Shown piece by piece: positions 1-50,163 of a stretch of DNA of 51,953 nucleotides. Source of the DNA: Perkinsus olseni (taxonomy: Eukaryota); NCBI GenBank assembly GCA_013115125.1, contig JABANN010000218.1:1-51953 (forward strand), written 5' to 3'. The notes beneath the pieces are model-generated. The model ran no database searches. It had not been told where the DNA came from and was given only the letters and a program-made list of their open reading frames with translations. Every line of letters begins with the position of its first letter. Position 1 is the first letter of the stretch. The position numbers were made by a program, and so were the translations under genes.

Positions 1-625
1 CCTCAAACTCTAAAAATTGTAGAAGTTACCTCACTGACATGTTTCGCAACCTTTAGATTGCTCGTACTGTAGGTGGTGCATTGTTAAAGATGAACCTGCA
101 GTTATGCTGACTACTACAATCGAAAAGGCTGGTTCAGCATAAACATGGTGATGCTCTGCGACATCGACGGATGCTTGCCGTATCTTTGATTGCCGCTGGA
201 CTGGAGCGACGCACGAATCATCACTGATGATTCATCAGTGTTATCTGTTGGATGTGGCTCAGTAGAGAACTACTGTTGTTGTGGTATGAAAGCAATTGGT
301 GGCTTCGTTGTCTTGGGTATGCTCAACGATCAACAAGATCTCGCCGTTGGTGCAATCAGCATAGCTCGCCATGAAACCTCGCTATGTAGGCGAGGTTCCA
401 ACTGTTTGAAGCGGGACGCCGGAAGTATGTTATACACGATGGCCTGCAATTGCAGAAGTTGTGTTCCTCGTCCCTCTTCTGCGGGTACGTGTATCTACAC
501 CGGTGTTGAGAAATAGTTATGTATGGCCCATCGTCTGCAGTTTTCCGAGAAATTCCTGCAGCCTTTTTTGGAACTAGTGTGGAAATCGGGTACTTTTTAC
601 GACTTTTTCATCAGTCTCCGCTCAG

Positions 626-3603
626 GTATGTTCGTGTCCATTGGAGTGGGCGCGAGAGAGGCCGGTTCATTCCTCTGGATTAGCTTCATACTAGCGGCCC
701 TTGCATGCGGGTAAGCCGACTCGAAAAATGCAATTCATGCATCGCTTCGCTCCGCTCAGAATATCTGGTCTTTGTTACTGTGAGATGAGCTCTCTCGTCC
801 CAGTGGCTGGATCGGCCTACAGCTACGTCTACACCATCTTAGGCGAGCTACCGGCCGCTATTGTTGGCTTCGTGCGCATGCGTGCATACCACTCCTTTGC
901 AAACTCGTCTCAGGTTCTTTGTGTCGACAGCTCTATCTCGGCCGCTGCTGTTGCCAGAGCGTTCGCTGCCTACGTCAACGTTCTGCTTGGTGAAAAATTG
1001 CCGAAAATTTTGTAAGAATTTTTTGGCAAGAGAATGGGAATGATCATGTGGCATCTCGCTCAACTCCTAGTACTTGATAGCGTCAACGCCGGATTCCATC
1101 CTGTAGTTCTTCGAGTCCAATAGTTCGGACTTTTACGTCGTCCGATATCACCTTTTTAGAATTATAGGCGGGATACTTTGTGCTACTTTCACGACTACAA
1201 TGAGTGACTCGGCTCTGATCTGTCTCGGGTCACGACGCCATTATTCACCTCAGTCGCTTCGAAGTAGCCACGGCGGAAAATTACCGGGTCAAATTTTCCT
1301 GTTGGTATCTTATGGGTAAAATGACTTCTTTTCTAATTTCCGCTCGTCCAATTTCTTGTCCGTAGTAGTCCCATACCACCCCTTCACCAAATTTCATCCT
1401 CTATTCCTTAGGGCGAGCGAGATTAACATCAGGTACGACTACGACCTCGGATCTTCCGAGAATCTTTGGTCGATATCTTTGCTTTCCTTCCTGCTCTGCC
1501 TCCTCCTCGGGCTGCTCCTTTATCGCGGGATAAGGCAAACGAGCACGTGAGTGTGGGGAAAATTTTTCCAGAAAAAGCGGAAATTTTTTTATGATTTTTC
1601 AGTTTCAATAATTGGAGTACAATTCTGAATATGGCGGTGATTCTAGTGTTCATAGTTGGAGGTGAGTTCGCGGATGCAGCGCGCGCCCTGATGATCGATT
1701 TGTCAGGTTTCGTGTTCTTCCGTAGTGATATTTGGCATCCTACCACTCCTGAAGGGATCGTTCGCGGCTCTGGTCGAGTCTTTTTTGCGTATCTTGGTTT
1801 TGATGTTATCAACTGCTTGGCTGAGGAGACAACCGAGGTGAAAAAATCAGGAAAATTCAAATTTTCGGGAAATTAACGAAATTTGTCTCGAAGATCTCAA
1901 ATTTTCCAGTCGGTAATAACTCAACTCTAAAAATTTCGATAATTTTCCGGAGAAAGATACGAAAATGACATCTCTGGTTCGATCCTTGGCAGGGTTATTT
2001 CTTCAGGCACGTCGACTGGTCCCGCGGGCAATAATCATCACCATTGTTATTTGCTGTGTGGTGTACGTATTGGTCGCAGGTAGGCGGAGCGAAGCGATTC
2101 ATGTAATCCAATTCTAGCTTTTTAGTCGCTTTCGTCCATTTGGCACCCCTGGCTAGTGTTAGTATGGACGCACCGCTGGCGACAGCTTTTGAAGCGAGAG
2201 GAGCGACAGTCCTAGAGTAAGCAACCCTCTTCGTATCTTCCTTGCTTCGACCTTGGATATTCCATAGTCTATTCTGAACAGCTACCCTCGACAATATTTT
2301 CCGAAATTTTTTCAGATTCGTGGTCTCGCTCGGCGCCGTTGGTAACACGATGACCTCCGTCATGTCGTCCATGATCGTTCAGCCGAGAATCATGCTGAGG
2401 ATGAGCAGTGACGGCCTCCTCCCCGAAGCGGTGAATCGCATCTTATATAGTGAAACGGCTGATCGATTCCATCTTGGTCAGATCGGAAGACTCACGAGTT
2501 CTGGTACTCCTTCCACGGCTCTTATTATAACAATCGTTATGTCATCAGCGCTCGCCCTGGTGATCGATTTTGAAGCTCTCGCAGATATTGTATCTTTCGG
2601 AGCTTTGCTGAGCTTCCTGGCTGTATGCCTATGTACCATGTTAGGTAAAAAATTTCTAAAAAATTTGCCTGAAAATTCTCGGGAAACTTCTCTTTTCTCC
2701 AGGCCGAGTTGTGCCGCCCTCTGTCTATCGTCAGCGGGCAGCCGCCAGTCAACAGCCGCAAGAATACGGAAAACCCGACGCAAACGGAGCGCCCGCGGCG
2801 GCCAAGAGTAGAACGCTCGTAGCCGATCTGCGAGTTCCTTGGATCAACCTAAGATTCTCGTGCAAGCGCTCAGCTCCGACCACATTACCCCAGAGAGATA
2901 CTCCTCATGGTTCTTTTCTTCGAGGTGAGATTTTTTTCCCAATTTTCCCCGACTTTTCCTTTTTTTCAGGTTGCAACATTAGTTTTCGGTGCGCTATTTT
3001 TGCACGATCTTGTGAGTATCTTTTTTTACCTCCCTTTGTTAATCATTTGTCTCTTCGCCGGGATCGCCACTTCCCGCGTGGTCCGCACATATTTCAAGTA
3101 AGACGAATTTTATCAAACCCGACGACTCGAATGATAACAGTTACACTGATCTCGGCGATGGTAATGAGGACCCTCTGACCAAACCTTTCCGAGTGCCGGG
3201 AGCCCCAGAAGTCCCTCTAGCTGGGATGTTCATCAACACGTAAAGCCAGCGTGATAAGAGATTTATTATCGCCCTCGAACGATGGCTCAGGTACATGATT
3301 TCGGGCCTGCCATTCGCGGCCGTTCTCCGAGGATTGGCAGTGATGCTCGTCGCCATCACATTTTATTTTGCGTATTCAATTAGAAATTCGAACTTAGCGG
3401 CATCGGGAGAAACAGCGGTGCAAAAGATGTAAGCCGGGAGAATCGAACCGGGTGCCTCTCTCTTGACAGCCGCAACCTCTACCACTGTGCTACTCGAGAT
3501 GTTTCTCCATTGTAGGGACGGGAAGATAGCCGGACGATATGTGAACTTCGAGAATGACGACGACTCCACCAGCCTTGATGGAGACACCGAAGATGTGATT
3601 TAA
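626..3603 (+). CDS. APC-superfamily cationic amino acid transporter (CAT-like), multi-exon; N-terminal exon(s) not identified
   Basis: Spliced exons read GMFVSIGVGAREAGSFLWISFILAALACG (626-710), ISGLCYCEMSSLVPVAGSAYSYVYTILGELPAAIVGF, GRVFFAYLGFDVINCLAEETTE|ARRLVPRAII, SSMIVQPRIMLRMSSDGLLP, LADIVSFGALLSF and PFRVPGAPEVPLAG, all typical CAT motifs. GT-AG introns include 711-759, 1838-2006 and 3429-3515. The last exon ends DTEDVI-TAA at 3603. Confidence 0.88.
3429..3515 (-). other. 87-nt intron of the + strand CAT gene containing an antisense tRNA-Asp-like pseudo-tRNA
   Basis: The reverse complement reads TAGCACAGTGGTAGAGG-TTGCGG-CTGTCAA-GAGAG-AGGCA-CCCGGTTCGATTCTCCCGG: A-box, GTC anticodon loop and B-box at tRNA spacing, with poorly paired stems. 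Confidence 0.72.
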
Positions 3604-3955
3604 AGTCATGACCAGTTTCTTGTGAGTAACTTCTTCGTTGCGTTCGAGTGGACACCCCTCTCGAGAGGGAAAATCTGCGTAGTGCGCCGTATCCACTCTC
3701 ACACATCGGGGTCATTTCTTTGACGCACCGCTCCGCTGAGCTTCTCAAAGATAGGAAGCTTGCAAATTGGCGCAAACGTGATCAAAACTTGCAATCTCGC
3801 TCCGACTTGCATTTCCTCAACTGATGGCTACCCACTATAACAACACAACACTATGCTTCACTATAGAATTTTTCAGCCGATCTACGATAAGAATTTCAGC
3901 GAGGGTAGTCAACCAAAAATAGTATACAGGTAAAAGTAGGACAGAAATATAATCA

Positions 3956-6252
3956 TTAATCGGCCCATGCAGGAGCCATCAAAAGCAAAGCGCCAGGGAG
4001 CAGATCGGCACGCAACGGGCTTGCCGAATCCATCAGCTCGCCATCGATGCCGAACTCAGCGTATCTTCTATCAGGATGAGACGCATCTCGTTTAATAGTG
4101 GGTTCAAAAACAACAGAAGTAACTCGCTCGGTCGTCACTCGAGGATCTTCCAAGTGCTTGTTGTCCGTCACCTTCGCTACGATTTGGGTGAATCTGCAAA
4201 GAGGCGTATCTTGAGGTCAACAAATGTACCATCTTACGTAAATCGATCAACTGCTGGTATTATAACCAGCTCCATGTAGCCGCTTGCTAAATGAGCGTTT
4301 TGCATCCAAACGGTTCGGTCTTCGGTATTTCGCACGGCCACGTTCGTCAGCGACAACAAAGATACTCCCTTCTGATCATCAACTTCAACCCATCCCTCTT
4401 CGCCCGCCTTCACGATTGGTGACGGATCAAGCATCTTGTGACCATCAGATTTTTCCAAATATTTTGTAGTAATTTTATGCAACACACTGCAGGCCATGCA
4501 AGAGGTCCCGCAAGGCCCCACATCTTGCAACCACCGAAGCATCTTCGATTCCGCCGTCGGCAGCGGCTCGCTCGTCTCAGGCGAGGAGGACTCGGCCGTT
4601 AATTCAGAAACGACCGGGCCAACTAGATTACTAATTTCGGGCGCGCTGGTGGTCTTATGGCAGCCGAGTGAAGGAGCCGCAAGACGACGGTCTATCTTAC
4701 TCCGTAAATACCTGAAAAATACCCCTGCCAGGGATCGAACCCACGACCTTCCGCTTACCGGCATTTCATCCCAGTGTATGCCAAACTAAATCCTCCTTTT
4801 CCATGTCCAACGTCGCTCGGATCTCCCCCTCCTCGGAACACCGTCTGCGCACCCGCAAAGATATATCTCGTGGGGCCCAAAAATCTTTTATTTTCCGACC
4901 GGACATTAACCTCGGCGATAAAACCATAATTAAGTCCGCACAACGCCAAAGTAACCTGTGGTCCCTCAGGCAAGTATCTTGTTATTTTCATGACATCCAC
5001 AGGTCTCATCCAGCCATTAACAATAGCCGTCGCCGCTGTCAGGGGCTGCCTCATTCCGCCACTGGCCGCCAAAGAGTTGTGGCTTCCCGCTGGGAGTTGA
5101 CCAATTCCGAGAATCGCAAAAGCCTCGGACGCATCCGGTCGTTCGGCCATGCCGTTCACGAGTTCATAGACCAAACCATCGCCGCCAACTGCTGCAATCG
5201 CTCCTATTTTTTCCAAATCGATCGACCGAGCGATTTCACCCGCGTGGCCAGGATGGTCAGTCTGCACGACTGAGTACTTCCGATGGGCTCTGTCCAGCAT
5301 AGGTTGAAGAATTTCCCGGAACATCTTTTTTGCGCGTTTCCGACCGCCGATCGGGTTGATGACGACCAGCAGCTCTTTCTCGCGACCGTACTGGGGTGTC
5401 GTCCAGTCTGTTAAAATCTCCTCCCACTTGGCGACACCCGCAACAAAGGGAACTCGGAAAGTGAACCTGAATGAAAAGATATCTTTTGACTCTGCGATCT
5501 CCTAGGTCGACCTCAAGATATCTTACTCTCTCAACTCTCTTTTGAATGGGTCCTTGTGTTCTGTATAGCGACTCTTGAATGGATTCCGATGCTTACCCCG
5601 CAACTTCATAGAAGTAAAGATACGAATCGTCGTATCCCCTTCGACGTCGTAAGCATAAATATCTTCTGGGCGCCACTCGATCAGCAGCTCCCCGTACAAA
5701 TCATCGACGCGGATTCTGATGAAAATACCATAAAATCGCCGGACATCCTCCACGTACAACCGAAAATGACCCACTTATGCCGAACTTTATTTTACAAAAC
5801 TTAAGAACTTTCACGAACTAACATTTTCCGAAGAGTAAGTCCCTCGATCGAGGCTGTTTAAAAAGAAAAAAAATCCGTCACCAATTCCAAATTTCTGCAG
5901 TCCTCAATCGCGACCAGGAAGTGTTCGGATTCTGTATCTTGCATGCTTCAACCTCAAGATACTACCTCTTGCCAAAAGTAACATGGGCCGGCACATTCTT
6001 CCATCCCGGCTTGCCATGCTCCGTAAAAATACCAATATCGCTGGCAGCTGGTAACGACGACGACTCGCCATTATTTGTCGAATTAGCCAAATTAGTCGAA
6101 AGTTTTTCTCGCGCGCCCGGAGCCGAGTTGGGTTGACTTATCGTCGTCGCGGGCGATGCTGAACCGTGTGGAAGAATCTTCGGCTGCGAACCCGGCGGGG
6201 CTGACTCGATGCTCGCTTCATGTGGTACCTCCGTCGTAACAGGAACGGTCAT
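3956..6252 (-). CDS. Sphingosine/ceramide kinase-like protein (DAGKc family), multi-exon
   Basis: Motifs LLVVINPIGGRKRA, VGGDGLVYELVNG, LPAGSHNSLA, FLGPTRY and GIDGEL. Probable ATG at 6252 (MTVPVTTEV), stop at 3956-3958. Introns include 4712-4758. Confidence 0.88.
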
Positions 6253-6348
6253 AAATACAAAAGATAAGAGAACTGCAACGACAATCTTGCAATCTTGCAT
6301 TTCCTCAACGCTACACTGCAAATCGGCAGAGACCAGAGGATAAATGCT

Positions 6349-8990
<2,642 letters not shown>

Positions 8991-9082
8991 TGATTAAAAA
9001 CAACGAGTAAAATGGGCGGAAAATTCCGATCCCACGCTTAAACCAAAAACGTTCCAAATGAGGACGTAAAATATTTTGTAAA

Positions 9083-10840
9083 TCATTTCTCGCTGAATTT
9101 TGACTGAATTTTCTTGTCAAGTTTGCTTCGCTCCGCCTTCATCACTCCCCTCCGTCGTCGTTGCCGCTGCCGCACGCTCCTCTCGAGCGTTATGAAGGTC
9201 ATCAACAAGACCATCCATATCCCACTGATGCTCAGTCTGAGAAAAATGGACCTCGACTTGACCTCTTTTGTATCTTGCACGCATGAAGATAAGATACTCC
9301 CATCATTACTGCATCCCAGTAATCCATAATATTAACACTTCGATCGATCGCCTTCAACAACCAGAACTCGTACGGAGGAACCTACGAGAAATTTTCGTGC
9401 GCCACAAATTTTTTTTCAGATTTTTTCCGGAAAAAACTCACCGTCGTCGGCAAATCTTTAGCTGTCGTATCCGGCGGCATGGTCGACGGAATGGCAATAT
9501 CGTGCTCTCTTATGAGATAACTATAATCGATCGCCGGGGCGGGCGCTACTGTCGTTGCCACATCCGGGACCACAGCCCCTGAGCCGAACCGTGCGGCGCC
9601 TACCAAAGTCGAGCCTGAGAAGAGTAGAACGCGCGCATCGTCGAAGACCCGATCGATCCCACAATCGTTTCATTTTGACGTGATAGTAATTCGTTTCGAA
9701 ATGGCCAAATACGACGTTGAAGATATATTTTGGAAGATACCAATTGCTCATGAGAAAACGACGCATGAAGAGTCAATGGCTTCACCAAAAAGGAACTAGT
9801 CCCTCTTACCATGATTCACTCGAAGTTTCTCGGGTTACTCATAAAAATAGAACGAAAAAACAATGGGAGGGGATGCTCAATGGACTGCATTTCAGGAGTC
9901 CTCCTAGGATTGAATTTAACGTGTGAAAGACGATCCTGGGAGGGCTGTTGAACAGCCTGAATGTATACCAAAAAAGATACCAATCTCACGCGCTGCAAGA
10001 ACAATCACTAACTCTAGGATCACCAAGACTACCTAGCATCTTCGGGAGGGTTATAACTACGATACCAAAAAAATGAAGACTTATCGTGATATATTACAAT
10101 AACTACGATACCAAAAAAACTGTAGACAACGAAGATACCGAGATCACGATACATGAATTCGTCGATAGAAGTTCTATCATAGAACCCGTCGCACTACATT
10201 CAGCCGAGGACATGATCGGTTGGGTGATGTCAGGCCCGCCCATTGGAGTGGCGGGTGGCCGAGCTGAACCGATGCCTGGCAGGTTGGGCAGGGGGGGAAG
10301 CAAGGATGGGAACGGAGGTATCTAAGGTTACACTCATGCACAAGACGGAAAAAAAGATATCATCACGAAAACTGCAGCATGGCAGACCAAGCGTCCACCG
10401 AAGAATACCAATTTTGCTTATTATAAGAATTAACGGAAAGACAAATCTCTTCCCCGAATAAAAAATCTAACCAAATACCAGAATAGTAGTATCCAAGATC
10501 CATTTGCAAAAAAATCCGCGAGAACAAAATATTCGCGAGCGTAGATTTCGAGAGAATCTTAGGTTGAAGCGTGTCCCCCGCGGAAAGGCTATCGGTCCAG
10601 TACTACCTCGCTGTCGAGCATCCTAGGTCGAACCTTGATAGACATGACAAAATGGATGAAAGAAGCACACTGCAACGGCTCCGAGTGAGAATTCCGACAG
10701 ATAAGAAGACACCACACACAGGGATCGAACCCACGACCTTCTCATAATCGTCCACGCATACTAAGCGTTCGAGCTACATATTACCACGACTAGGAGGGTT
10801 CAGGACGCCGGTGAGGGTCACTAAGGAAGCTAGACTACAA
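9083..10840 (-). CDS. Hypothetical multi-exon protein with Pro/Thr-rich segments and a C-terminal TM helix followed by a basic tail; boundaries uncertain
   Basis: Exon-like segments LPPLPNLPGIGSARPPATPMGG (10103-10303), VVPDVATTVAPAP..DLPTT|gtgag (9442-9606) and LSISGIWMVLLMTFITLERSVRQRQRRRR (about 9150-9240), separated by AT-rich intron-like DNA. No recognised family. Confidence 0.45.
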
Positions 10841-11393
10841 CTCGAAAATGCTGATGATTGGAACGTGGGGCATCGGGAGAAACCATCTTCCGCTGGAAAG
10901 ATACCGCAACTTCACCGCACACAATGTTAAGATTCGTCCTGAGAAATTTTCCCAAATTATAGTCGTCGATGAACACTCGCGGGGATTACTGTCGACGGAC
11001 ACCCAGCTAGCCCGCCCGCCAAGATCTTCAAAATACTTCCGGCGAGTCGCCAAAACACACAATGAAGCTGTCTCCCAGAACGCTCAGGAGTCCCCTCACG
11101 GTTACTCAATTCCCGGGGGCGACGTTGAAGAAAGGCGGACTGGAGAGGAGGATCTAAAACTCAGAAAGAATGCATCCGAAAAAGAGAGTTCAATTTGGTT
11201 TGAAGGAAAATAAAAGCAGTTAACAGTAATAATTATCCAAGCACTAATAACTGCTCCCGAAGTACAAACGCAACAACTACCGAAATTGAAAAAAATCTGC
11301 CACCGATGACTTCTCTCAAACGGTGACCAGATTCTCGCAGCCGGTTCGAAACCGTGCCTCAGAAATTGCGAAGGGGAAAAGTAATGAAGGGCG

Positions 11394-13831
11394 TCAATGT
11401 ACCGCGGCGCGACCTTGGACCAAGCCTTGGATCGCGTAGAAAGTGCCGACGATAACAATACCTAGGACGACCGCTAGGGCTGTATAAGTTAGGTAGAGGC
11501 GGTATCCCCTTGGTTGCTGAATGCGAAGGTAAAACCAGAGGGGGAATATGTAGATTGAACCTGAGCGGAGCGAAGCTAGATTTTCAAATACCGGGTTGTT
11601 TGCTTTGAACTTACATGCTGTGAGAAGAATCCCACCTACGGCTTGGAAGTAGGCGAGCTGACTTCTAGCGACCACTGCCAACAGTGCGATGATGCTTATC
11701 ATCACACAACGCCATATAATCCTCCAGACAGTGCTTCCAGCGAAAGCGGCAGTTGTAGAGAATTTATGCTGAAAAAAATACCTCTGCCGGGAATAGAACC
11801 TCGGCCTTTCGGAGTACGGACGGGTGCTCGACCGCTACGCCAAACGAGGACTCACCAGCAGATGAGATATCTGCGTCTCGCTGCTAACCATCACCGGAAC
11901 CATGAGGACAGGGACGAATGCGAGCATCCTCACCAGAATGAAGGCACACGCTGTGTATATGAGCCACTTCGGGAGGACCCCCGCAGGAGCAACTAAAAAA
12001 TGACAAAACCGAGGATCGAACCTGCGACCGATTAAGCCATCTTCAATCTCGCCAATTCAAACTCCTGCTTCGCTCCGCCCACTTACGAGAGAAGTTTTCT
12101 ATGTAAACTTGCTCACAAGGGCCGTCACATAAAAGTATCCCCGCGGTTCCCAACACGTAAACGTAGAGTATCGAAATTATCAAACAGATGCACATCCACA
12201 TTGTGATACGGCTAGAGGGCGTGTCTGAAAAGGAATCTTTTCTGTGCGCACCAGCGAGGTCGTCGACGTACTCTTGACACAACCGTAGAAGGGCGGTAGG
12301 GATGGCGCCGCGCCAGAATTCCAAATGGACAGCGCGACTGCTGTGAAGAAATGCAAAACAGGCGGATCAGCAAGCTGCAGGTCATTCTCGACCTTTTTAA
12401 GGTCGGAAGATTCGACCAAAGTACCTGCGGCTACCTGAGTTGGGAAAGTTGTGGTATGGAAATGTGCACGCATGCGCACGACACTTACCAACATTCCCAA
12501 ACCACCAAGACCTGCGACTACGGCGGTCACTGCCAACACGCCATTGATCTCTTTCATAAAAGGACAAATGATTATTAACAAGGATAAAAAGGAAAATATG
12601 ATTATCCACCATTCAACTGAGCAAAGGAAAGATATTCTTCGCTGTGCGCAAAGATACGCCTACCGGATATAGAATCAAACAGAATATGCGTAGTGATGCC
12701 CATGGCCGCCTCAACGCCAATGACCGACATAAGATACTCCAGAAAGATGACCTAAGAATCAGGAAAAAAACTTCGCTCCGCTAAACTTTATTTTCCGCCA
12801 AGACCAACAAAAGATTCGCTACTAATCTCACAAGCTTCGTCTTACTGCCGAACCTAGGCTGCCGATCGCATTTGAATTTCGTGGCGCAGTGACGCTGCGC
12901 GAGATGGCCAACTTACCGCCGATGCAAACCTCCTCCCAAGGCGACCACCACAAAATTCGGCAAGAAAAGTGTACTCGCGTTCGAACGGTGGGACGCCTTG
13001 TTCTTCAGCAAACTGACAAACCTACAGCGGAGCGGGGCAATAATTCTTTCGCAACTTTCACTCATACCTACTTTTTCGTTACGCAAAGCCGCGCTGACCA
13101 TTCTGATACAAATGAATACCGAAACAGCGGTGAGCGCTTGAATCGGGATCGCCAGCAAGCCAGCGGTGGTGAACATGAACGGTACCGAGAGGCCGATGGT
13201 TGTTAGTGCATTCAAGCACGTGAGAACGAAGGACCTGACCCGGACCAGCAAGCAGTTACTCGACACGATCACAACAACGCTCCGCCACGTACTATACAAT
13301 TTGCAAAGTTTTTCGCTTGGAGGAGTCTTTTCATAAAGTCCAAGGAATCATTGGTTCTATGACGGAGTTTGCAGACCGTCATGATCACCATCATGAGGTG
13401 TCCTGTGAACATGTGTCGACATCTGCATCAGTATAGGTGCATAAATTGGAAAGAATCAACATCAAAAATAAACAAGAAATTACGATGGGCCACCCTTACC
13501 ATCTACTCTTGATGGATATTCCCTCTACGATGAGGCGCTCACGAAGAAGAACAAACATGAATGAACGATCAGTATCTAGTAGGTCACTACTGCACATTAC
13601 AAGTTAAAAGATACTACATGTACGCCATGAGTAGAGCTAGGCAGAACCCATGCCACCCCAACACTACCTCAAAGATATGCCGCTTTCCATTCTCTTACAT
13701 ACCGCACCATTCCCAACTCCCTTGCCTGACGTTGGCAGCTGGGCCTGGGTGGTGGTGGAGGGGTCCGTCGAGGCCTCGGTGGGGATGGTCGTAGCCACTG
13801 AGATCTCCGATGCTGAGTAGCAGTCAGTCAT
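11394..13831 (-). CDS. AAAP (Aa_trans) family amino-acid transporter, copy A (divergent)
   Basis: Exons MTDCYSAS..GNGAVCKRMESGISLR, SFVLTCLNALTTIGLSVPFMFTTAGLLAIP, EYTFLAEFCGGRLGG, HFFTAVALSIWNSGAAPSLPPFY and GSIYIFPLWFYL..QGRAAVH*. Multiple TM segments; same exon layout as copies B-E. The family call rests on the N-terminal G-L-S-x-P-F-x-F-x-x-A-G signature. Confidence 0.8.
11769..11855 (-). other. 87-nt spliceosomal intron filled by a degenerate tRNA-like sequence (A-box, B-box, T7)
   Basis: GTGAG-TCCTCGTTTGGCGTAGCGGTCGAGCACCCGTCCGTACTCCGAAAGGCCGAGGTTCTATTCCCGGCAGAGGTA-TTTTTTTCAG. The flanking exons join in frame (HLL|HKFST). Confidence 0.75.
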
Positions 13832-15495
13832 GGCAGGAGAGGGTGATAGTGATGCCGCCTTTGCGAGGCTCACCAAACGCCTAAAATATCATACGCTCTG
13901 AATTTGCCATGGATCGACCTTAGATATTTCTCGTAACGGTCATGATGATGACAGTTCCCAAGAGGCCCAAGCCCGCCACGAAGAGACGCCGATTCGCAGG
14001 TCACCGCGTCGACACGAGACGGCGTCTCGAAACGGGGAAGATTTTGTCTCAGTCGAAGTCGACCTAAGATTCGCTTTGGTGTATCTTTTCAAGGCCCTGG
14101 CTCAACTCAACTCCACAGTAATTGGCCAACAGATCGATAATCGAGAGGATCGACACGTGAGGCAAAGCCCCGACGAATAATTGCCAAGAAGTTGCTGGGG
14201 CGAAATTAATCAACAGCTGAACCCGATGGGAATGGACCCCACCCGGACTCAGCTGAGCTCTCAGGAATCTTCCACAACCACCACAACCTGAGGGGAAGAG
14301 TCTCGACTCTGGAAAAAGATTAATGGGGCATTCGGTCAGCCTGCGCGGTCACCGCGGTTAACGTGAGCCAAGGAACGACGAGTGCGCAAGATTAGTATCT
14401 TCGCCCGACGTATCCGACGGTTTCAACGTATCCGTAACAGCCTCGCAGAGGCTGAATTTCTATCACTGCTACTGTACTGTTACAACGTTGGTTCGTACCG
14501 TTGCTACGTATTGTGGTTGTGGATCGTACGTACTAGCTCTGGTCTGCTGTGTCTCTGCTACGACTAGTGCACGTGAGTAGCTATAGATAGCTATAGAAGT
14601 ATTGGTATTAACGACTGTGATGTTGGGTTCATAGATGGACGTGAACTCTCTCTCTATTGAGGATTCAGGCGTTGCCAGCAGCGGTCACTTCCCCACCTTC
14701 GCTCCTCCTCTACGCGGGGTCGACGTCTATTCTGCGTTTTTCCTGCAAGGCTCACCCCGCGACCGCGCAAGCCAATTCTTTCCTGACGAAAATACTATCG
14801 ATTCGAAGAGACCCGGTAACGCAATCAGCAGAGCGACAAGTAATAGAATGATACGGTCCCGCTGCAGGAACCGCCAGGAGGACTCTAGCCGTTTCATGGA
14901 CGGCGGTTTCATTCGCAGGAGGGTGCACTCCACGTCTCCACTTTTGAACCAAACGTTTTTGGTGGTGTAAAAATATTCGAATTCGTGACAAACTCCGGGG
15001 GGGGGGTTCGACGAGGTGCCGATTAGAGACAGAGAGAAACAAGCATCTCGTTTACCCCTACACGACGAGGCTAGCTGCACGCATGCACCAATTCTCAGAA
15101 TTGAATTCTGTTTCTGGCCAGCTTCAACCTCGGATGTGGTATGTCAGGTAGTGAGCTGACTCACATGCGTTCAGTGAGGGATCTTACGTACTCGATCAGA
15201 GAAAGTAGGTCCCCGTCACTAAGCCTTCTCGAACAAGAAGCCACGATTCCCCTCCCCCCCCCACTCTTGGGTGCTGGTAATTGGAAACAAACGACCAATT
15301 TGACAGGATTTTGCGATGGAACGCCCGCATATGAGAAAATCCTGCAAAGTCCTGCCCGATCTCAGAGGAATCTTGGAGGAGGGTTAAAGCAGACGTCCCC
15401 TACCATTTATATACATTAGTAGTTGATTTGAGGCGACGCAAGTCCTTCAATCAATTATGTTCGGCCCTCATGCAGTATCTACACCTTTTCCTGAG

Positions 15496-15811
15496 CAGGG
15501 TGGCCCAGAGGGGAAGAATGCTATTCTTTCTTACCGGGAATTCCGGAAATTCCCGGGAAGAAAGAATGCTCAATATTCCCTGGAAGAATAGTTGAGATTC
15601 TTCCCGGGTATTTGGGTGCTTCATTCTAATGGTTTGACTTGAGGGAGCATCGAGTACGGGTGGATATGCGCGCGCGAAAAAAATTTGGGGGCTCGTTTCA
15701 ATGGGGAAGAATGCATTCTTTCGCTATATTCCCGGCTATATTCCCGGGAATTCCCGGGAATTCCCGGGAATGGGAAGAGTGATCCATTCTTCCCACTTTT
15801 GGGCCACCCTG
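15496..15811. mobile_element. Non-autonomous hAT-like MITE (316 bp)
   Basis: Perfect 12-bp TIRs CAGGGTGGCCCA/TGGGCCACCCTG with an imperfect extension to GGAAGAATG. Exact 8-bp TSD TTCCTGAG at 15488-15495 and 15812-15819. Subterminal TTCCCGGGAA repeats. An 8-bp TSD with CAG termini is typical of hAT elements. Confidence 0.9.
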
Positions 15812-17136
15812 TTCCTGAGCAAATGGAAAGTTTTTACGTGTGATTTAAACTATTTTAAAACAAAATTCGGTTTCCCATACTCTTTTAAATCAAATGGAAA
15901 AATATTTTATTAGCTCGGGAAAAGGTGTAGATGCTCGCAGGGGCTTGATGTAGTGCCGGGAAGGCACAACTTTCTGTTTTCCCGCCTCTGTTCTAGTATG
16001 AGGCCTACCATTGGATATTCACTGTAGAAAACCGGCAGCAGCTGAAGCAAGGTCTGAGGACTGGCGGCTGGGACGATGACCGAGAGGATAGAGGAAGACA
16101 CAGAAGAAAACGTGCGGAACCTTAAAAGCAGGAAGACGTGATGATTAGTCCATGTATTGCTCGTTATCAAGGAACGTTTCAATCTGAAAAACACTTTGGC
16201 ACCGAACATGCTCTGGACGAAACGGTCATGGAGGAATTGCGGTACTCTCGAAATTGTCTTCAAGGACATCTCAAGGTAAGTTGGCAAAGGGGCTTGGATG
16301 GTGTTCGGCGAATACCATCCAAGCCCGAGTTAGTAACAGCGAATACTATTCGCTGTTACTAAAAACTTGTTAGACACTCTGACTTAGTGTCCAACTCTCA
16401 AGACTCACAGTCCCTGTGTCCTAACAGATGGACGCTGACTAGAGTATGGTGCGTCACAGTCTGTGGATCTGTCCTCAGCGACCACCGCCTTGTGGTTCGA
16501 TTTGGATGGCAGCTGCCCTTGTGTTAAAAGCTGTTGTGAACAGCATGTAACATACGGACCATGCCAGTGCTGCTGTGGGCGATAAACCCACTTCAACCTC
16601 GCAGCTCAAGTTACCTCGGCCGGCCGGCAATATCTATCCATCGGGTAGATGGATAGATGTTACATCTGTCTTGGCTTTCATCGGCGCGCTGTCAAACTTG
16701 GATCGGCACTTGTCAATGTTGCTCGTGGATTGTCATACTTGATTGTGATACTGTCATTCCTGCATGTAATAGTTTTGCCCTTGCCTTGGTGTAAACAAAT
16801 TCGACATGTGTCAAAGTTTGACACATGTCATGCAAGTTTGACAGTCAAACTTGCGTGTTCATTCAATGAACACGCAAGTTCATTGAATGACAATAAACTT
16901 CATTGACAAACTTGCTTGTCACATTGTCATTCTTGCCTGGTCACTTGCACGGGAAATGGTGAAGTTTCGCAACACAACAACACAGTAAACGCAGAAAGCT
17001 TCCTTCGAGAAGGTAAAATACCAAAGCGACGTCTGAGACTGCCACTCGTAGGGAAGCGCGTCCTGTCGTTTCAAGCGAGCGGACACATGAGGAGGGGATG
17101 ATGATGAAATGATGAATGAGCCTGAAAAGTCTGCTT

Positions 17137-37864: not shown

Positions 37865-40347
37865 GGTTGAAAGAAAATCGCCCTAGCTCTCAATTCCAGA
37901 GACTCTCTGCTCATTCTGAATGAGCAGTGCTCATTGAGCACACGCCCGAGAGAGCTAACCAGGCCGAGCTCTGCCCACATCAACTACACACAGAGTCTTC
38001 GGTAGGCGATACGACCATGCAGCCGTGTCCAAACAGACTAACTTTGTCAATGGATGAGAATCGCGAGAAAATAAAGGCACTTGATTTAATCAACGGGATT
38101 GACGAAGGTGCTCTGGAACACAGGAAACTCCTCATGTATGGAGAGTAGCAGGAGCCACCGTATCTCAACTGAGACTGCCACTCCCTCGTTGCGGGTACAA
38201 AGCTGATATGAACAAATCAGAGCGCCACGTTCTCATTCTAGCCGCGTGGTGAATTCTGCGTCTCAAAGCCGAGACCATCAGCCTGCCGCGCTACTAACTC
38301 ACCAGATAGAATAACACGTAGCGGAATGAAGGTCCTGTAGTCGGTGCGAACCTGGTTAGACCAATCAGGTTGATGATGATACGACCCACTCGGAACTTCA
38401 AATCCTCATTGAGCCGCGGGATTCCCGAGTCGGGATCGAATTCACAGAGCCTCGGACAGTGTTTTACATGCAATGATTGCAGTGCAATCTGCCCGATTCA
38501 CTCTCAGAGCTGCGAAAGAACAACACCACAGAGGAACCGTGCAATAAGCTATCGAATATGAAATGTCCGTCTTTGAAAGACACGATACATCCAGCAGGCT
38601 CGGAGTCGTGACGCCAGGTTCACGCGAGAACCGGCCTCTCCGGGCACAGGCACACATTGTGTGCCACACAAGACTCGTGTGACCTATGATAAGCTCGATA
38701 TCAGACACGTCATTCTCACGTGGAGAGCTCTCTCTTGTGCCACAAGTGGTGTTCGTACTGATTTACCAGCGAGTATGCTTGGACTCAAGGCAATGCCAAA
38801 AATCACGCAATGCAATCATTCTGCATATGTCCGTCGAGACACTTCTTCGGCAAAGTCGTTCCTGTAACAGGAATCCTGTTGCATTTCTCGTCGGATGCTA
38901 TTCCACAGCCAGTCGATGAATGTCTCGGTGTAGCTCTAGACGAAGCGGAAATATACCCAACACGGCTGCGGAAATTATCGCCCCAGTGAGCGCCTGCCGT
39001 TGCCGACTATTGGGACCTAGCGCAGGCCGATTACTCTGTAGCCCCAGGCTTGTCCGAAGGCGCTAAGGTCACTGGGAGACAGTATGGCCATCTGACCATG
39101 ACGGGTGGTTATTGTGACCGGTGATTGCGAGTGGTGATTGCTAACGGTTATGGCGCGGGTCTTGTACGGAACACTGGGCCTTCAATGGGGCTGCCACCCG
39201 TCGAAGGTTAAACCCGACGGCACACTTTCTTATCCTTCCAAATCGAACCCCGCCAGTAGTGTCCCTCCACATCTTCGCACCGGCTGATGCAATAAGGCCA
39301 ACATCAATGAGCAACCTCCTTGTACGCTCGTAGCAACCACGCCCTCATGAACTCAGCTTGCTTGCGCAGAACAAGTCGTGCTCATGATATACCGCACAGC
39401 CCAGCGTTGAGCATGATCACAAACAGTACGATTTTCCATCCAGAGCATACTTGAGCTTCAAGTCTTGAAGCCCGCTGCCCCGTGACGTCGGTGCTCGAAA
39501 TGCCGTAGCAGCCATAATGTGAATTAGAAAGGACAGCATCATCAATAGAGTTACTCTACTGGAGTGCGTACAAAGGGTGATATGATGTTGGTACAATCAT
39601 CCTTCAAGTGGGGTGAATATCGGTAACTCCTTCGCAGCGTCGAGAAGGCTCATCCAACAGAAATCCTGCTACAAGATCTGGCAAACCTCTATCGTAGGAT
39701 TTTGCGATCAAGATCAGAAAAAGAATCAAATGAGAATTAGAATTCGTTGAAATGAAAATTAGATACAGTAGTGTATTTCCGACTAAAATTTGCATACGAA
39801 TTTACTGCTCGGCGGCAATACGGGAAATAACCTACGCATGTTTGTGCTCAACGCTCGCCGAACGCCGCCCCATAAACTACCCTTCGGGTCTTGCCATCAT
39901 CGGCGACACTTCCCAAATACACTCTGAGTGACCTGCTTCGGTTGATGGAGGGCTGGCGATCGGTCAATGCTCAATCACTGAGCCTCAACGACAACGAAAG
40001 TGTCCTCGGCAGTTCGGCTTCGGCACTCTGCTGCAAGCGCGACTTCAATTTGGCGCAGGTTACCTGCATGTCTCGCAGATAATTCCGGCTGCCTAAGAAA
40101 ACAGCTGCCCCCCCAGTCAAGACGATATCGACCTCTGTCACTAATTGGAGAACTGCAAACTCGAACGTATCTTTAAGGAAGTCAAACAAATGTTAAGTTA
40201 GAGATCAACATTCAAGTGAAATTCTAGTCTGCAGCAATGGTCCACTAGATATCCTACCTAGTATTACGACCTCATAATAGTAGTCCCCACCGGGGATAGA
40301 ACCCAGGTCGTTCGTAAGACAGTCATGAACGTTTCTTCCTACAGTAT

Positions 40348-43222
40348 TCAGACATCAGCCCAAATTTGAATGATACTGAAGACTGTGCCGAGGATAGCAG
40401 CTGCTGAGGCAACGATAATACCAACATAAAGACCGGCGACAACAGCGGAGCTGCCAGTCCTCATAACAAGGAGGTAAAACCCGAGCGGCACGACGAAAAC
40501 AAGAGCTGAGAAGAAACGACCATCTCACGCCCGCATGAACCCGTGCCAAGCCCCACCTATAGTGATCGCACATCCAGTGACAGCATAGAGTTGAGGCAGG
40601 TGATTTTGAAGGGCGACAGCCAAGCCACATACAACAACAGTGACCAGCCCCCGCCACAATACACGCAACTTAACCGACGCGGTTCGAACCTGATCATCGC
40701 TGAGCTTCACTTTGAAGAACCCATGCAGTAGCGGAGCTTCTACGGCCGATAATGAACCATCACAGCGAAATATGAGGACCACAATGTCGAGTGTGATTAC
40801 CATCAACACTCATGGCCGCATTCAACTGCGAGCAACGGCCCTTACAGGATAGACACCAGCAGGGGCACCTCGAATACCGCAATTCCCATTTCTGATTGCG
40901 AGTTTACACACCAATCATCCGCTGAGTCTGAGCGAAGATATTCCGAAGCGCGCCGGAATACTGCGATGGCCCGTATGAAAGAAGAATGGCAGCAGCATCA
41001 GAACTACTAAATCCCCACGATCGATACTGGTTCAAGCGGCAAGATGCGTGAGGTTCCTGAGATCCCCGTGTATTACCACAGTGGCCTCCGTCACGGCCAT
41101 CAACGGCGTCATTAACACAGGGATGGCCACGAGACCGTAGGCTATGTACACCAGATAGACGAGCACGAATGCTCCATAAGGTATTACTGAGAATAGAACC
41201 CACGACCATGCGAATGACAACCGAATGGCTTAACGATCCAGCCAAACCCACTCACCAGTTTGGTCACTCTCGAGTAGCGTCAGATAATTGGGCGGACATG
41301 CACTATCTCCACAGAGATGCATCCCCAACACTCCAACAACGCTCATATACAAAAATGAGCATCCAAGCGCCGCAGCCAGGCATCTCTCGAAATATCTTCG
41401 CCGTCCACTGTACCCCACTGCCACGCTCTTCTCCATCGTCTGACTGTCCTCTGTTGCCGCAGACGCAACCGTATCGGCCGGTGACGATGGTCGAACAGGG
41501 GATCCACCCTTCACGGACGGTCCTGAGGGTTTATCATTTCAAGATTTCCAACGGCGCCTGCGCCATTAATTCTATTCGCGGAGATGTAGGGACATAATTC
41601 CTCGAACAATTCTGCTATTGTGACGATCGCTCTACAGCGTAGCCTGAAGCTAGGACAAGGTGTTCTTGTATAGCTGGAACAGAGCTCACAAGAAATTGAG
41701 GATTAACTACAGGGCATGCCTCGCGCGAGGACTCTCCCAAGATTTGACTTACCAGAAACGACGCCCACATACGCCGGCAACGAGAAGGCGTTCGAAAAGG
41801 AGAAGACGACAACTCCGAGAAGAACGAAGAAATCGCCAACCCCTCCAGCGGGCGAATAGAATGGGATCATCGGTAAGCTAGATTGATCGTCCTCCGTCAA
41901 TCGAGCGATCGAGGCTATAATCTGACAAAAAGAAAGATACGCCCAGCACCACTTCCCGAATGGCTCCTACCAGTCCGATCAACCCGACCGTCAGGGCCAC
42001 TGGCGTAACGATCGCGCACACGCGTGTGATGTGCTCGTAGATCGGCACCACCGAGAGGGCGAAGGAAAGCACGGCAAATACCAGAACGCAGTAACCATCT
42101 GAAAGACGAATCTAGGACAGAATTTTTCGGGGAAATTATTACTAGCGATTCGAAAAAGTAACGATCCTGCCTCAGCCAGGGCAACCATGTTGGCAATTAA
42201 CGTTAATAAAAACTGTATACTGATCATCTGAAGAGAGGAGAAACCCGAGAATTCACCTCGACCTTCTCCGCCTCGCTTCAACTCGGATAAGGAAGGTAAC
42301 CGTCGATGAGCGTAAAATGAGCCCAACAACAACGACAACTGCGAGGCTCGTCATTCACCCCAGCAGTTGGCGGAAACAGCGCAAACAGCCCGGCCGGATC
42401 AACTACTGTTGATCGGCCGCAGTGAATCACGAGAACGGCCGAATTACGGCGATAATAACGACTTCCCCAAATGAATTTACACCACGGATAGGGTTCCTAG
42501 CCAACGAAGCCAGTCGATGAGAACTAGATTCTACAGAACGTAGTCCATAACAATTCACATGCAAATCGGCCAATCACTGGTGGAGTTCACACGACCCTCC
42601 TACAACTTTATACGCGAAAAAAAGCAAGGCCGGAGAGTATTTCAGCACGGGCCTGCCAACCCAATCACCGGTGTGATGAACACCCTCCCCCCAACCCACT
42701 TACCGTAGTGATTACGGAACGACCTTTCAAGCCGAAGAGCATCTCGGCGATAAAACCATATTCACGGTTCAAAACTTCAACACCTCTAAGCCTGGCATAT
42801 GACGTGACCTGAGCTAATTAATTGCCCTGCCCCGGGATCAAACCTGCGCCCTATTTACTACCGCTTCAGACTGCACTAAGTGAGCTTGCAGCCACACCGC
42901 TCCGCCAACTAGGCCGGTGATGAGCGACGCGATGATTAGGCTGAACCATCCCACTCGGGAGAATGCGTACGGGCTTGCGAGGTTGGTTGATATCAGTGCA
43001 TTCACACACACCAACATGAACGACCTGCGAAGGAATCTCAGGTTGAAGCTGGCATCAAACAAAAACGAACCGCTTCCGCATCCTCCAGCCCTCATCAGTC
43101 TCTTCAGCCACTGCGATTTCTTCGACCTCGGGCGCAGTCGAAAGATTCTCCTGGACGCCGATAATCTCGTTCGAACTCAGCGAAAATCTAATCTTCTTGT
43201 GGAGCCTGTCCACGATAGATGC
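40348..43222 (-). CDS. Divergent AAAP-family amino-acid transporter, copy F; 5' end unresolved (further exons may lie up to about 43950)
   Basis: Exons SFMLVCVNALISTNLASPYAFSRVGWFSLII, VLNREYGFIAEMLFG (about 42730-42785), MISIQFLLTLIANMVALAEAG, LVAIPVLMTPLMAVTE, LRVLWRGLV..LPQLYAVTG and ALVFVVPLGFY..QIWADV-TGA (40348-40350). Confidence 0.75.
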
Positions 43223-43995: not shown

Positions 43996-44775
43996 ATGTC
44001 TTTTCATCGTGCGTTCGCAAGAGTTGTCTGCAACTACAACAAGAGCATCGAAGGCTCCGTGCCATGGTAGTTCGGGGCGTATCTTAGGTTGAAGCATGGC
44101 AATCACAGGTACCAAGTGAAGCGGGAGAAGTCGCCATTCCAACAAGTGTGGGACGAAGTCTTCACGCCCGTCTGGTTCAAGCTCGTTAAGGGCCCGTAAG
44201 TCTCCCCCACCTTAGAGAGCCGCCGGTTGAGCATACACAGGGGAATGCCTTCAAGTGATGTTGACTATTTCCAACCTATTAGGAATACTAATTGCGATGG
44301 ATAGGATTACCTACACCCAGCCTTCCTCCCGCCGGGGACGATGAAACCGCACAAACCGGGCTGGTCAGGTACGAGCGTTGGGAATATAACGCCCTGGTTG
44401 CTCGCTACAGAGGGATGGGCATTATGGCCGATGATGCTATGAATGATAAGGTATCCGGTTCGATCCCTGGCGACGGCATTTTATCCATTTCAGGATATGA
44501 TCGTCGAACGAGCGCTGGACATCATCCCCGAGGATATCCGTATCCAAAGGTACAGACGGATGATGCGAGGTAAGGTCGACCTCTAGGCGTATCTTTCGAC
44601 CGTTTCATTACCCTCAGGCGCGGTTCTGGCTGGTAGAAAGCTTCATCTTCCGCTAGAGCTACAGAACTACGACCCGATGGTGCCCTACATGGCGCCCTAC
44701 ATCGAAGAGGCCAAATTCCAGATGCAGGAGGAACAGGAGCTGCTGGCCTTTCATCCCTGGGACCGACGACTGTAA
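43996..44775 (+). CDS. QCR7: Cytochrome bc1 complex 14-kDa subunit (QCR7/UQCRB), alveolate type
   Basis: Exons 43996-44066, 44109-44195, 44369-44450, 44494-44569 and 44618-44775 join in frame: ..RYRGMGIMADDAMNDK|DMIVERALDIIPEDIRIQRYRRMMR|GAVLAGRKLHLPLELQNYDPMVPYMAPYIEEAKFQMQEEQELLAFHPWDRRL. It may continue via a further intron at 44772. Confidence 0.85.
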
Positions 44776-45380: not shown

Positions 45381-47362
45381 ATACACCGCAGGCGTGTCCG
45401 GTTTTGGCGAGACTTCGATGCACTCGACCTTCTTCACTATGTAGCCGCTCGATGGCTGATGAAGTATTGGTACATTCGGCGCTCAGTGCGTCGATCATCA
45501 TCATGGTTTACGATGAGGGAAAATATTTTTTATTTGACCTCGGGTCGATTTTAGTGGTCAATTTGTATTCTGTGGTGTTTCGCTCCGCTAGATTCTCCTG
45601 ATTTTCATGAGCGGATTTGTCGAAGAAGAAACAGACGACCCAGCAGGCTTCGTTGCGGCTGCGAGGCGACGTGCTTCGAAGCAGCGGCGAAGTCACGACG
45701 ATATCACGACCGAGGATCGAGCCTACGATCTCTCCAGGAAAGATGTGCCCGTTGTCCGAGAGCCCGCTGATGAGCACCTGGAGGTAGTGTTGACTGACTT
45801 GTTGGTAATAGACGGTCTGACGGCCCAGGCTTTGGCGAGGCTGCGGGCCTCGCATGCTCCGGTGATATCTCCTGATCGAGAACGGCAACCAGTGACGCAT
45901 GCGAAGGAACAACCCGGCGTTGATGAAGCGGATAGAAAGCGGTTGTCCCCTGTTGTTGTGGAGGGCCTGAGTTCCGCAGGTGGGCTAGCTAGGAGAAGAT
46001 GCATTGGTGGCAATGCTTTTAGATGGTGCGACGAAGGAGGGTGACACTGGCCACGTTGAGGACAGCGGGAGTAGAGTAAATCGTCGGGTGATAGAAGTCA
46101 AGCCAGTGACCTATGCTGAGTAGTGACGGGCTGGCGTGGAAGAATACCGAATTTTGATGATAATGTTTGATTCGCAAGGAGAGCTAGATGGCTGCTAGTC
46201 GCTCTCCCGTTTTACTTGGAGCATCTACCCCTCAGCTCACGTTCGCTCAGTTTTGGTGGGTCCTTGCTGCGCGGGGCAACGAACATAATGATTCATTCGG
46301 TGCCCACGGTAGTCGGTGTTGGTTTTCGCTCCGTCTCACTACGTTGTCCCAAGGGCGATGTAAAGGCCTCTCAAAGGTTGCAAGGTCATCAATACTGGCA
46401 TCTCCTGGTAGGGGCGCAAAAAGCTTCCTCATGGTAGCTGGTAATCATCGAAGTCCCATGCCGACTGAGAATTCCGGACATACTGCACATTTTTATAGCG
46501 TCAAAAGGTTCGAGCGACCATTATCGAATAGTTAATGGTATTCAACAATTTGTCGGGTACCCTTTAGATCAACCTTCGCTGTGCGTTAGATACGTTGCTG
46601 TCTGCGAGCCACATGTGGGATGGCGAAGGTTCGGAGGTCTCGGTAGGGGACGCCTGGAGGAGGACGATGAGCTAATAAGGAAGCTGGCGCAACAGGCCAA
46701 GTTACCGCTTATCCGCGTACTTTGTGTTCGCCCTGATGTTGGTCGCAGGTGAAGCACTTCAGCCGACAGCTACGCCGAATCAATGCGGAGAAGCAAGCCC
46801 GAGAGAAGAGCAGGCCTCGGGAGGATGATCGGGTGATATCGTTATCAGAGGGAAGATTTGAATCAGTTGTTCTCAGCTTTCCATCGATGCTAGATCTCGA
46901 GGGCTGGAGTTTCACCGTCGTCAAAGAGAAGGGCATAAGATGAATAGGGAGGCTCGGAGCCGTCGAACGCGGAAGTCGAACTCGAAGCGGCTCGGTGGAG
47001 TTTCGGTGATGGTCGCGTGATGGGGGTAGTTGATTTGGTCAGGTCCGAAGGAAGATCAGGAGGCAGCCGAGCGGGCTAGGTTGGAAGAGATGTTGCGACA
47101 GCATGATTGTCTTCGTGCTAAAGTGGATGCATTTCGACGCTGGCTCCATCTTGGTTGCGCCTTCAATGGTAATCGAGAGATCCGCGTCCGCCACTTCGGT
47201 CGAGGAGATGAGTGGGCAACCGCCTTGAGCTGTGAGTTTGCAGTGCAGATGTTTGAAAACAGTGTGTATTCCCAGAACGCCGCTTTACGGCGGGAGTATC
47301 GCCAACACTGGCTTTATTGGGCCCCTCGTAATTTTTCTCGTGCGATTTTCATGGCTGTTTAG
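45381..47362 (+). CDS. Hypothetical multi-exon gene(s); model unresolved
   Basis: Exon-like ORFs after CAG/TAG acceptors (45381, 45592), plus 45607-46044, 46749-46943 and 47030-47362. The last two are partly duplicated at 48722-49068. Confidence 0.35.
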
Positions 47363-50089: not shown

Positions 50090-50163
50090 TACTCTGGGCG
50101 GGACTTGAACCCGCAACCTTTGGATTAGAAGTCCAACGCTCTATCCGATTGAGCCACCAGAGC
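50090..50163 (-). tRNA. tRNA-Arg(UCU), intronless
   Basis: GCTCTGGTGGCTCAATCGGATAGAGCGTTGGACTTCTAATCCAAAGGTTGCGGGTTCAAGTCCCGCCCAGAGTA forms a full cloverleaf with anticodon TCT and differs from the 35957 copy at 2 positions. Confidence 0.95.

Follow-up and report, generated by a model that had tools for sequence, protein, structure and literature searches.

A 47-nt intron of Perkinsus olseni with the layout of a tRNA 3' half, and tRNA-like relics in introns of neighbouring genes

A 47-nucleotide (nt) intron with the sequence of a decayed transfer RNA (tRNA) 3' half was found in a sphingosine-kinase-like gene of Perkinsus olseni. The gene lies on contig JABANN010000218.1 of assembly GCA_013115125.1, and the whole stretch analysed (51,953 nt) is called the window below. 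Donor, T-run and acceptor of this intron are relic sequence, and they are removed by the spliceosome. According to the explanation that fits best as a whole, which we give about an even chance, the U2-type intron is a decayed tRNA-Thr-type 3' half, it belongs to a class of such relics, and it took over a site already used for splicing. The origin of new spliceosomal introns is a long-standing open question, and the intron-making elements known to us are transposons.

Splicing and tRNA likeness of the 47-nt intron

The host gene is encoded on the minus strand and specifies a DAGK_cat/sphingosine-kinase-like protein (PF00781, E=1.1e-25). In protein comparisons it is best matched by two P. olseni models, P0001 (94% identity; 'sphinganine kinase lcb4') and P0002. 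The intron and the two exons next to it are arranged as follows:

4759..5466, minus strand: upstream exon of the sphingosine-kinase-like gene; DAGK_cat PF00781; RNA piece 4756-5464; P0001 at 94%
4712..4758, minus strand: 47-nt intron, tRNA-Thr-like 3' half making up the whole intron; skipped in RNA, joins the frames, in tRNA register; profile E=3.1e-9
4238..4711, minus strand: downstream exon of the sphingosine-kinase-like gene; RNA piece 4238-4708; tblastn of P0001 and P0002

The intron, 4758..4712 on the minus strand, has GT..AG borders, and the reverse complement of 4712-4758 is GTAAGCGGAAGGTCGTGGGTTCGATCCCTGGCAGGGGTATTTTTCAG, in position and letters the intron proposed earlier from inspection of the DNA sequence (the sequence-only reading). 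Excision of the 47 nt fuses open frames of 247 and 158 codons in phase 2. To follow its splicing, contigs of four runs were aligned to positions 1-17000 of the window; X1 is a DNA run, X7 and X8 are RNA runs on record, and X16 was guessed to be RNA. X7, X8 and X16 each provided one contig of about 2 kb over 3862/3876-4193, 4238-4708, 4756-5464, 5525-5715 and 5966-6263/6274 with no intervening letters, while record 1 of the DNA run is continuous over 44-14389 and retains the intron. The skipped interval 4709-4755 equals 4712-4758 because 'tac' is present at both ends, causing an ambiguity of 3 nt. At the protein level, the junction ...GMKCR|YLRSK... is identical in P. olseni models. The stretch 4758..4712 is a real spliced intron, and it shows the properties of a U2-type intron, which are GT..AG borders, a restored frame, absence from RNA (contigs of three runs) and presence in DNA.

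Two tRNA genes detected by ARAGORN in the window provided the register for comparison:

50090..50163, minus strand: tRNA-Arg(TCT) gene, register reference; ARAGORN
35957-36030, minus strand: tRNA-Arg(TCT) gene, second copy; ARAGORN

These genes are nearly identical, lie 14 kb apart and reach 74.6 and 66.7 bits with Rfam. In both, no run of four T residues is found within about 14 nt past the discriminator base. Placed in their register, the 47-nt intron has GGT where the anticodon would be, followed by AA, a stem strand of 5 nt, AGGTC, a T arm of 5+7+5 nt (GTGGG/TTCGATC/CCTGG), a 7-nt acceptor strand (CAGGGGT), A, TTTTT and CAG. Anticodon, variable loop, T arm, acceptor strand and discriminator base of a tRNA 3' half are all in register. 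The T stem is imperfect, since four of its five positions pair and two of these pairs are G-U. For the T-arm motif GGTC-N3-GG-WTCRAWYC, seven occurrences were counted in the window compared to 0.27 expected, and none of 100 shuffles reached seven. A leave-one-out profile made from nine other copies recovered 4759..4715 at E=3.1e-9, the best value in 20 shuffled windows being E=0.12, and a profile without the three nearest copies still recovered the intron at E=1.2e-8. Register and leave-one-out search thus agree with the earlier proposal that the intron equals a tRNA 3' half. None of the relics is a working tRNA.

The RNA contigs, compared with the window, define four introns of 250, 60, 47 and 44 nt in the host gene. 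At its 5' end, the contig of X8 contains ten letters absent from the genome just upstream of 6274 (minus strand), and the host-gene mRNA therefore starts there. The ten letters agree with the presumed 3' terminus of the Perkinsozoa leader, and spliced-leader trans-splicing was noted at 6273-6274 (minus strand). In the part of PMC9399869 at hand, the Perkinsozoa leader begins with ACCGTAGCCA and ends with AAG. Model P0002 fuses a protein kinase encoded upstream with the sphingosine-kinase-like gene, which is probably a merged annotation. Other genes of the window show 93-97% identity to P. olseni proteins, and the window is accordingly regarded as nuclear DNA from a Perkinsus near P. olseni. 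At position 3434, the DNA-run contig is without 14 bases present in the window, possibly owing to variation between alleles or strains in non-coding DNA.

tRNA-like relics and other repeats in the window

To determine the distribution of such sequences, a profile of ten copies, which had originally been found via the T arm, was searched over the window. It placed 13 copies at E<=0.003, and the next two matches were the real tRNA-Arg(TCT) genes (E=0.028 and 0.078). In addition to the 47-nt intron, the following places were recorded:

42809..42861, minus strand: 53-nt intron of an SLC38-like gene, whole relic 3' half, donor at the same GGT register; junction SEA|VTSYARL fits P0007 and P0009; E=0.003
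44451..44493, plus strand: 43-nt intron of a small gene, whole relic 3' half, donor is the variable-loop GT; AMNDK|DMIVERALD exact with P0010; E=8.5e-9
6604..6656, minus strand: 53-nt intron, the last one mapped in the protein-kinase gene upstream, whole relic 3' half, antisense; DAAV|ALMKKCW fits P0002; E=7.5e-8
8537..8713, minus strand: 177-nt kinase intron starting with a relic 3' half (about 8719..8672) that ends with A and a T-run; KRELT|VMLTLRH fits P0002; E=3.5e-8
41187..41255, minus strand: 69-nt intron of the SLC38-like gene, GTGAGT and nearly full-length tRNA-like sequence; junction fits P0008 (DQIVIPYGAF)
11769..11855, minus strand: 87-nt intron of paralog p1, GTGAGT, nearly full-length tRNA-like sequence, T-run, CAG; RNA piece 11856-11992 ends at the donor; E=2.9e-8
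11993..12086, minus strand: 94-nt intron of paralog p1, ends with relic 3' half, T-run, AG; RNA piece 11856-11992 begins at the acceptor; E=4.1e-7
1838..2006, plus strand: 169-nt intron of an amino-acid-permease-like gene, last 45 nt or so are relic 3' half, T-rich run, CAG; predicted borders; E=4.1e-7
40284..40317, minus strand: tRNA-like copy inside the last SLC38-like intron (about 40368..40060, approximate borders); exon map; E=2.5e-4
6481..6524, minus strand: relic 3' half between the end of the protein-kinase frame and the spliced-leader acceptor belonging to the following gene, with GGT and AA in register; E=4.5e-10
10706..10799, minus strand: degenerate full-length tRNA-Thr(AGT)-like copy; ARAGORN -ps90 (10710-10799, Thr(AGT)); E=2.7e-7
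45701..45736, minus strand: weak tRNA-like copy; profile E=6.7e-4

Ten of the 13 copies are intronic, nine in sense and one antisense to the host gene. Thus, similar sequences are present in ten introns of six unrelated genes. For 22 introns, borders were fixed by RNA contigs or P. olseni protein models: four in the sphingosine-kinase-like gene, ten in the upstream protein-kinase gene, five in the SLC38-like gene and three in the small gene matching P0010, which is presumably cytochrome bc1 subunit-7-like. One of these borders, 44196-44320, matches its protein model poorly. A relic is contained in six of the 22, and in four short introns (43-53 nt) relic sequence accounts for the full length. 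The exon between both p1 introns (11992..11856) corresponds to exactly one RNA piece. In the permease-like gene, the open-frame join AEETTE|ARRLVPRAIII across 1838..2006 was made by eye only. The acceptor of intron 41255..41187 cuts the relic inside the T stem; ARAGORN -ps90 calls this relic at 41179-41248, and model P0009 reads into the intron (GEWVWPDR versus GEWVWLDR in the window).

Inspection of the copies in register revealed common elements. NGT is found at the anticodon place in seven of twelve in-register copies (four times GGT, and CGT, AGT and TGT once each), whereas about 0.75 would be expected. As proposed before, the donor GT of the 47-nt intron is the GT of NGT, followed by AA; the frequency of NGT and the Thr(AGT) call at 10710-10799 bear out the Thr-type character of this anticodon loop. 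The copy at 10799..10706 also has a 22-nt core in common with the 47-nt intron. Directly after the acceptor strand, A and a T-rich run are found in seven of twelve copies and in neither of the two real tRNA-Arg genes. The T-run abuts the (C)AG acceptor directly in four introns, but A and the T-rich run are also present in copies away from any acceptor. The T-run is therefore regarded as part of the relic, and the idea that the terminator supplies the acceptor tract agrees with the arrangement seen here, T-run plus CAG forming the acceptor. Two further elements beginning with GTAA had been pointed out at 6521 and 6610, and both exist as described; GTAA-N5-AGGTC occurs three times compared to 0.36 expected, a number reached in 2 of 100 shuffles. 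The element at 6610 proved to be a complete 53-nt intron (6656..6604), but it is antisense to its host gene, the relic itself being located on the plus strand at 6607-6654. The one at 6521 lies just past the upstream kinase frame and is not a mapped intron.

Comparisons of the copies among each other revealed considerable divergence. Over 40 in-register nucleotides, pairwise identity is 56% on average (35-78%), and the high identity between copies that would indicate recent activity was not observed. Identity to the unrelated tRNA-Arg is 51%. Relative to the class consensus, the copies show 57-88% identity, with the 47-nt intron at the top (88%). This star-like pattern fits repeated copying from a conserved source and is not evidence of copies spreading from copies. 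Three copies have the unusual T-stem strand GTGGG in common and may form a sub-lineage. All copies possess a B-box-like T loop. A tRNA-unrelated body and a tail of the type found in long interspersed nuclear elements (LINE), or an A-rich one, as in tRNA-derived short interspersed nuclear elements (SINE), were not found; the copies end in a T-run after the discriminator base.

Other repeated motifs were noted in the same DNA. The heptamer GTATCTT occurs 43 times in the window compared to 5.5 expected, and 0 of 100 shuffles reached 43; examples are 4206-4221, 5506-5521, 5934-5962, 7823-7850, 9270-9297 and 44589-44595. It is often part of a small hairpin, GTATCTTG...CAAGATAC, or adjoins GAGGTCGAC, and is present in three of the four host-gene introns. 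The heptamer is absent from 14.4 to 40 kb, as are the tRNA-like relics. The 13-mer GGCGGAGCGAAGC is represented by 15 copies with up to two mismatches, six of them exact, compared to 1.3 expected, with sites including 2083-2095, 7687-7699, 7941-7953, 8319-8331, 9125-9137 and 12067-12079. In several copies it directly follows an intron donor (GTAGGCGGAGCG at 2080 and 8334, GTAAGTGGGCGGAGCG at 12086). An exact 17-mer, TTCGTGGCGCAGTGACG, occurs three times, at 7479-7495 (minus), 7710-7726 (minus) and 12878-12894 (plus). That these two motifs are 5' halves of the same tRNA-like unit was considered and rejected; the flanks of both motifs are unrelated and the motifs do not fit tRNA 5' halves, so they are treated as separate. 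Two kinase introns start with GTAATTTCGTGGCGCAGTGACGC. In the DNA run, many joints, loose ends and depth spikes were seen at 7302, 7320, 7479, 12874 and 12894, as at the ends of high-copy repeats. Finally, a 21-nt tandem repeat of at least seven copies occupies 51749-51953 and reaches the window end.

Gain of a new intron or occupation of an old site

A relic could have created the intron in which it is found or could have replaced the sequence of an older one. In the window, the two introns of p1 can be examined in this respect, the first of five tandem membrane-protein paralogs on the minus strand (p1-p5; 11450-12350, 17230-18100, 23970-24980, 28690-29600 and 32570-33520). All five have the intron after ...(H/R)LL at the same position. 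In p1 this is the tRNA-like one of 87 nt; the introns in p2-p5 are unrelated in sequence and about 61-146 nt long. At the site of the 94-nt intron of p1, a stretch of the form GTAAG..AG is present, 30 nt long in p2-p4 and 44 nt in p5. In p2 this stretch holds an in-frame TAA, so that there is either an unusually short intron or a broken gene. Both testable tRNA-like introns are thus at old positions, shared with p2-p5, and do not represent intron gain. Since they occupy the positions of unrelated introns in p2-p5, relics also occur at older intron sites. Such a situation, an older position with unrelated sequence in relatives, had been named in the sequence-only reading as contrary to its proposal, and it was encountered for these two introns only. 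For the 47-nt intron, a protein search using the frame left open across it yielded a single relative, P0006, with 70% identity. The frame of P0006 begins only at MERRL, a few codons past the junction, which indirectly suggests a break at or near the same junction in the relative too. Scanning of metagenome contigs with the downstream exon gave 400 pattern matches, none of which was confirmed as a relative.

The suggestion that tRNA 3' halves are splice-competent cassettes holds in this case, because donor, T-run and acceptor come from the relic, and it extends to 42861..42809 with the same register and to the four whole-relic introns. As a generalisation it found no support. Among the remaining copies, donors are located at different relic positions or outside the relic, one copy lies in the middle of an intron of about 310 nt, and the two p1 introns are at shared positions.

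In the explanation that fits best, the 47 nt are an ordinary U2-type intron whose sequence is a decayed tRNA-Thr-type 3' half including the T-run. The donor GTAAG would be derived from the GT of the NGT anticodon and the following two A residues, the T-run behind the discriminator base would serve as pyrimidine tract, and the CAG after the T-run as acceptor. A candidate for the branch point is the T-loop A, located 23 nt before the acceptor. The class as a whole would consist of loose, old tRNA-Thr-like relics, spread through transcribed DNA almost only in sense and mostly in introns. Their source may have been a tRNA-Thr gene or its unprocessed transcript, copied repeatedly, and the sense bias of the copies suggests that copying was RNA-mediated or otherwise tied to transcription. 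At the 47-nt site, we lean slightly towards take-over of a pre-existing position and away from a new intron.

Several observations weigh against this explanation. The Rfam tRNA model gave no match at E<=10 for any copy, neither in 106 nt around the intron nor in the whole window. ARAGORN with default settings found the two tRNA-Arg genes and did not call the 47-nt intron; relics were detected with relaxed thresholds, three copies at -ps90. The case for a tRNA origin is therefore one of layout and motifs. Because the copies were found through the T arm, their counts are biased towards this part. An identity of 56% between copies compared to 51% with tRNA-Arg does not establish a single mobile family. 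Target-site duplications, tails or shared flanks were not seen by eye, and for the duplications no formal search was made. The 47-nt intron has no base outside the relic, its donor is within relic homology, and the intron at 42861..42809 uses the same GT donor register; these features would be explained more simply by insertion into an exon.

In such an introner-type gain, a tRNA-Thr half-copy would have been inserted into a coding exon and would have persisted thanks to the donor, tract and acceptor that it chanced to carry, and the intron would have been born thereby. We regard this as possible though rather doubtful. It would account for the absence of older sequence at either end of the intron, for the donor inside the relic and the second intron in the same register, and for the four introns of 43-53 nt that are wholly relic. 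The 9:1 sense bias is as expected under selection for splicing, the 47-nt intron is the least decayed copy with 88% identity to the consensus, and a 4-nt direct repeat, GGTA, flanks it. However, GGTA is expected from the splice-site consensus alone, and nothing consistent was seen by eye at the other relic introns, the remaining whole-relic introns being without a repeat. Moreover, both testable tRNA-like introns are at old positions, the frame of P0006 is seemingly broken at or near the same site, and the copies are old and diverged, with no Perkinsus introner families in the portion at hand of a published screen (PMC12130899). A more far-reaching version, a 'half-tRNA introner' in Perkinsus, is still more tentative. 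The tRNA-Thr 3' half with its terminator would be a complete cassette that made new introns including the 47-nt one, with the Thr anticodon GT plus A37 and A38 as donor, the T-loop A as branch point and the polymerase III terminator as tract. Screens would have missed such copies because they are short and diverged.

The other explanations appear less probable. Real tRNA genes once nested in introns or spacers could have died there without any movement. The identity of 56% between copies is indeed close to the 51% found with an unrelated tRNA, acceptor strands vary among copies, and two live tRNA genes are present in the same window. Such decay in place is nevertheless improbable, since NGT is common to seven of twelve copies, nine of ten intronic copies are in sense, which is not required of independent polymerase III genes, and 13 relics are found along with two live genes in 52 kb. 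In addition, the T-run after the discriminator base is missing from the live tRNA-Arg genes and several copies are halves with the same start point. Retention for a function, as a TFIIIC B-box site or a tRNA-like RNA fold, which in place of descent would have preserved the recognisable sequence, is even less probable. The T-loop region, or B box, is the best preserved part in all copies, and introns here otherwise turn over fast. But conservation is partly a matter of ascertainment via the T-arm motif, and mismatches in the T stems of the copies are uncompensated. When ten introns were folded, the 47-nt intron was no better than its shuffles (z=+0.52; 138 of 200 folded as well), and a preserved tRNA-like fold was dropped from consideration. 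That a short GC-rich intron resembles half a tRNA by chance, as the failure of Rfam and default ARAGORN to see a tRNA might indicate, is very improbable in view of the seven T-arm motifs compared to 0.27 expected, the leave-one-out value of 3e-9 and the full register agreement with real tRNAs.

Comparison with known systems and significance

Introners of Micromonas, Aureococcus, fungi, the dinoflagellates Polarella and Symbiodinium, and Amoebophrya resemble the relics in that related sequences serve as introns of unrelated genes, often in whole, nearly always in sense, and with the element bringing its own splice signals. The Perkinsus copies differ in their small size of about 40-80 nt and in their age, with 57-88% identity to the consensus. 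Neither inverted ends nor target duplications were seen, two of the copies are at ancient intron positions, and the source of the copies looks like a polymerase III gene rather than a transposon. Like tRNA-derived SINEs, they are tRNA-like in sequence, contain a B-box-like T loop, are dispersed in many copies and in some cases lack the 5' part. Unlike SINEs, they are without a tRNA-unrelated body and a LINE-like or A-rich tail, no flanking duplications were seen, and at their 3' end the acceptor strand is followed by a single base and a T-run, as in a tRNA gene including the terminator. Ordinary tRNA pseudogenes are likewise degenerate cloverleafs or halves, and ARAGORN -ps90 calls three of the copies, but the Perkinsus relics are concentrated in introns, in sense, and used as splice sites.

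A screen of 8,716 genomes published in 2025 lists '0 0' for P. chesapeaki, P. marinus and the P. olseni assemblies shown in the available part of supplement file 6 (PMC12130899), and its main text does not mention SINE, Perkins or polymerase III. In the part of its family table at hand (supplement file 7), the single RepeatClassifier label 'tRNA' belongs to fam3 of Polarella glacialis with 1,709 copies. This family comes from the sister lineage, the dinoflagellates, and carries the tRNA label, but its best protein match is a LINE (L1-Tx1); it is known here from one table row alone. tRNA-derived introns are not mentioned in the available portion of a 2024 review of transposon-derived introns (PMC11282704). 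For Amoebophrya, introners with inverted repeats are described, and the part of that paper at hand contains nothing on Perkinsus introns (PMC7789003). Literature searches combining Perkinsus with introns, tRNA-like, introner, repeat or splice site, and searches for tRNA-derived or SINE introners, revealed no description of tRNA-like Perkinsus introns. Introns with repeated-element sequence are already known; half of a tRNA-Thr-type gene as that element would be new.

In the sphingosine-kinase-like gene, sequence of tRNA-gene origin demonstrably functions as an entire intron, and the relic class fills about one quarter of the mapped introns of the window. This hints that copies of tRNA genes can serve as ready-made introns. 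For practical work, relaxed tRNA scans of Perkinsus genomes will yield many false intragenic tRNAs, and introner screens tuned to long and similar copies overlook such classes. If the copies merely colonise old introns, intron content would be replaced while the position is kept. If they create introns, a polymerase III gene would represent a source of introns of a new kind, with a simple reason, since GTAA is spelled only by the Thr anticodon plus AA; should the half-tRNA cassette itself have made introns, it would be the first case of an intron-generating element with a polymerase III gene, and not a transposon, as its origin.

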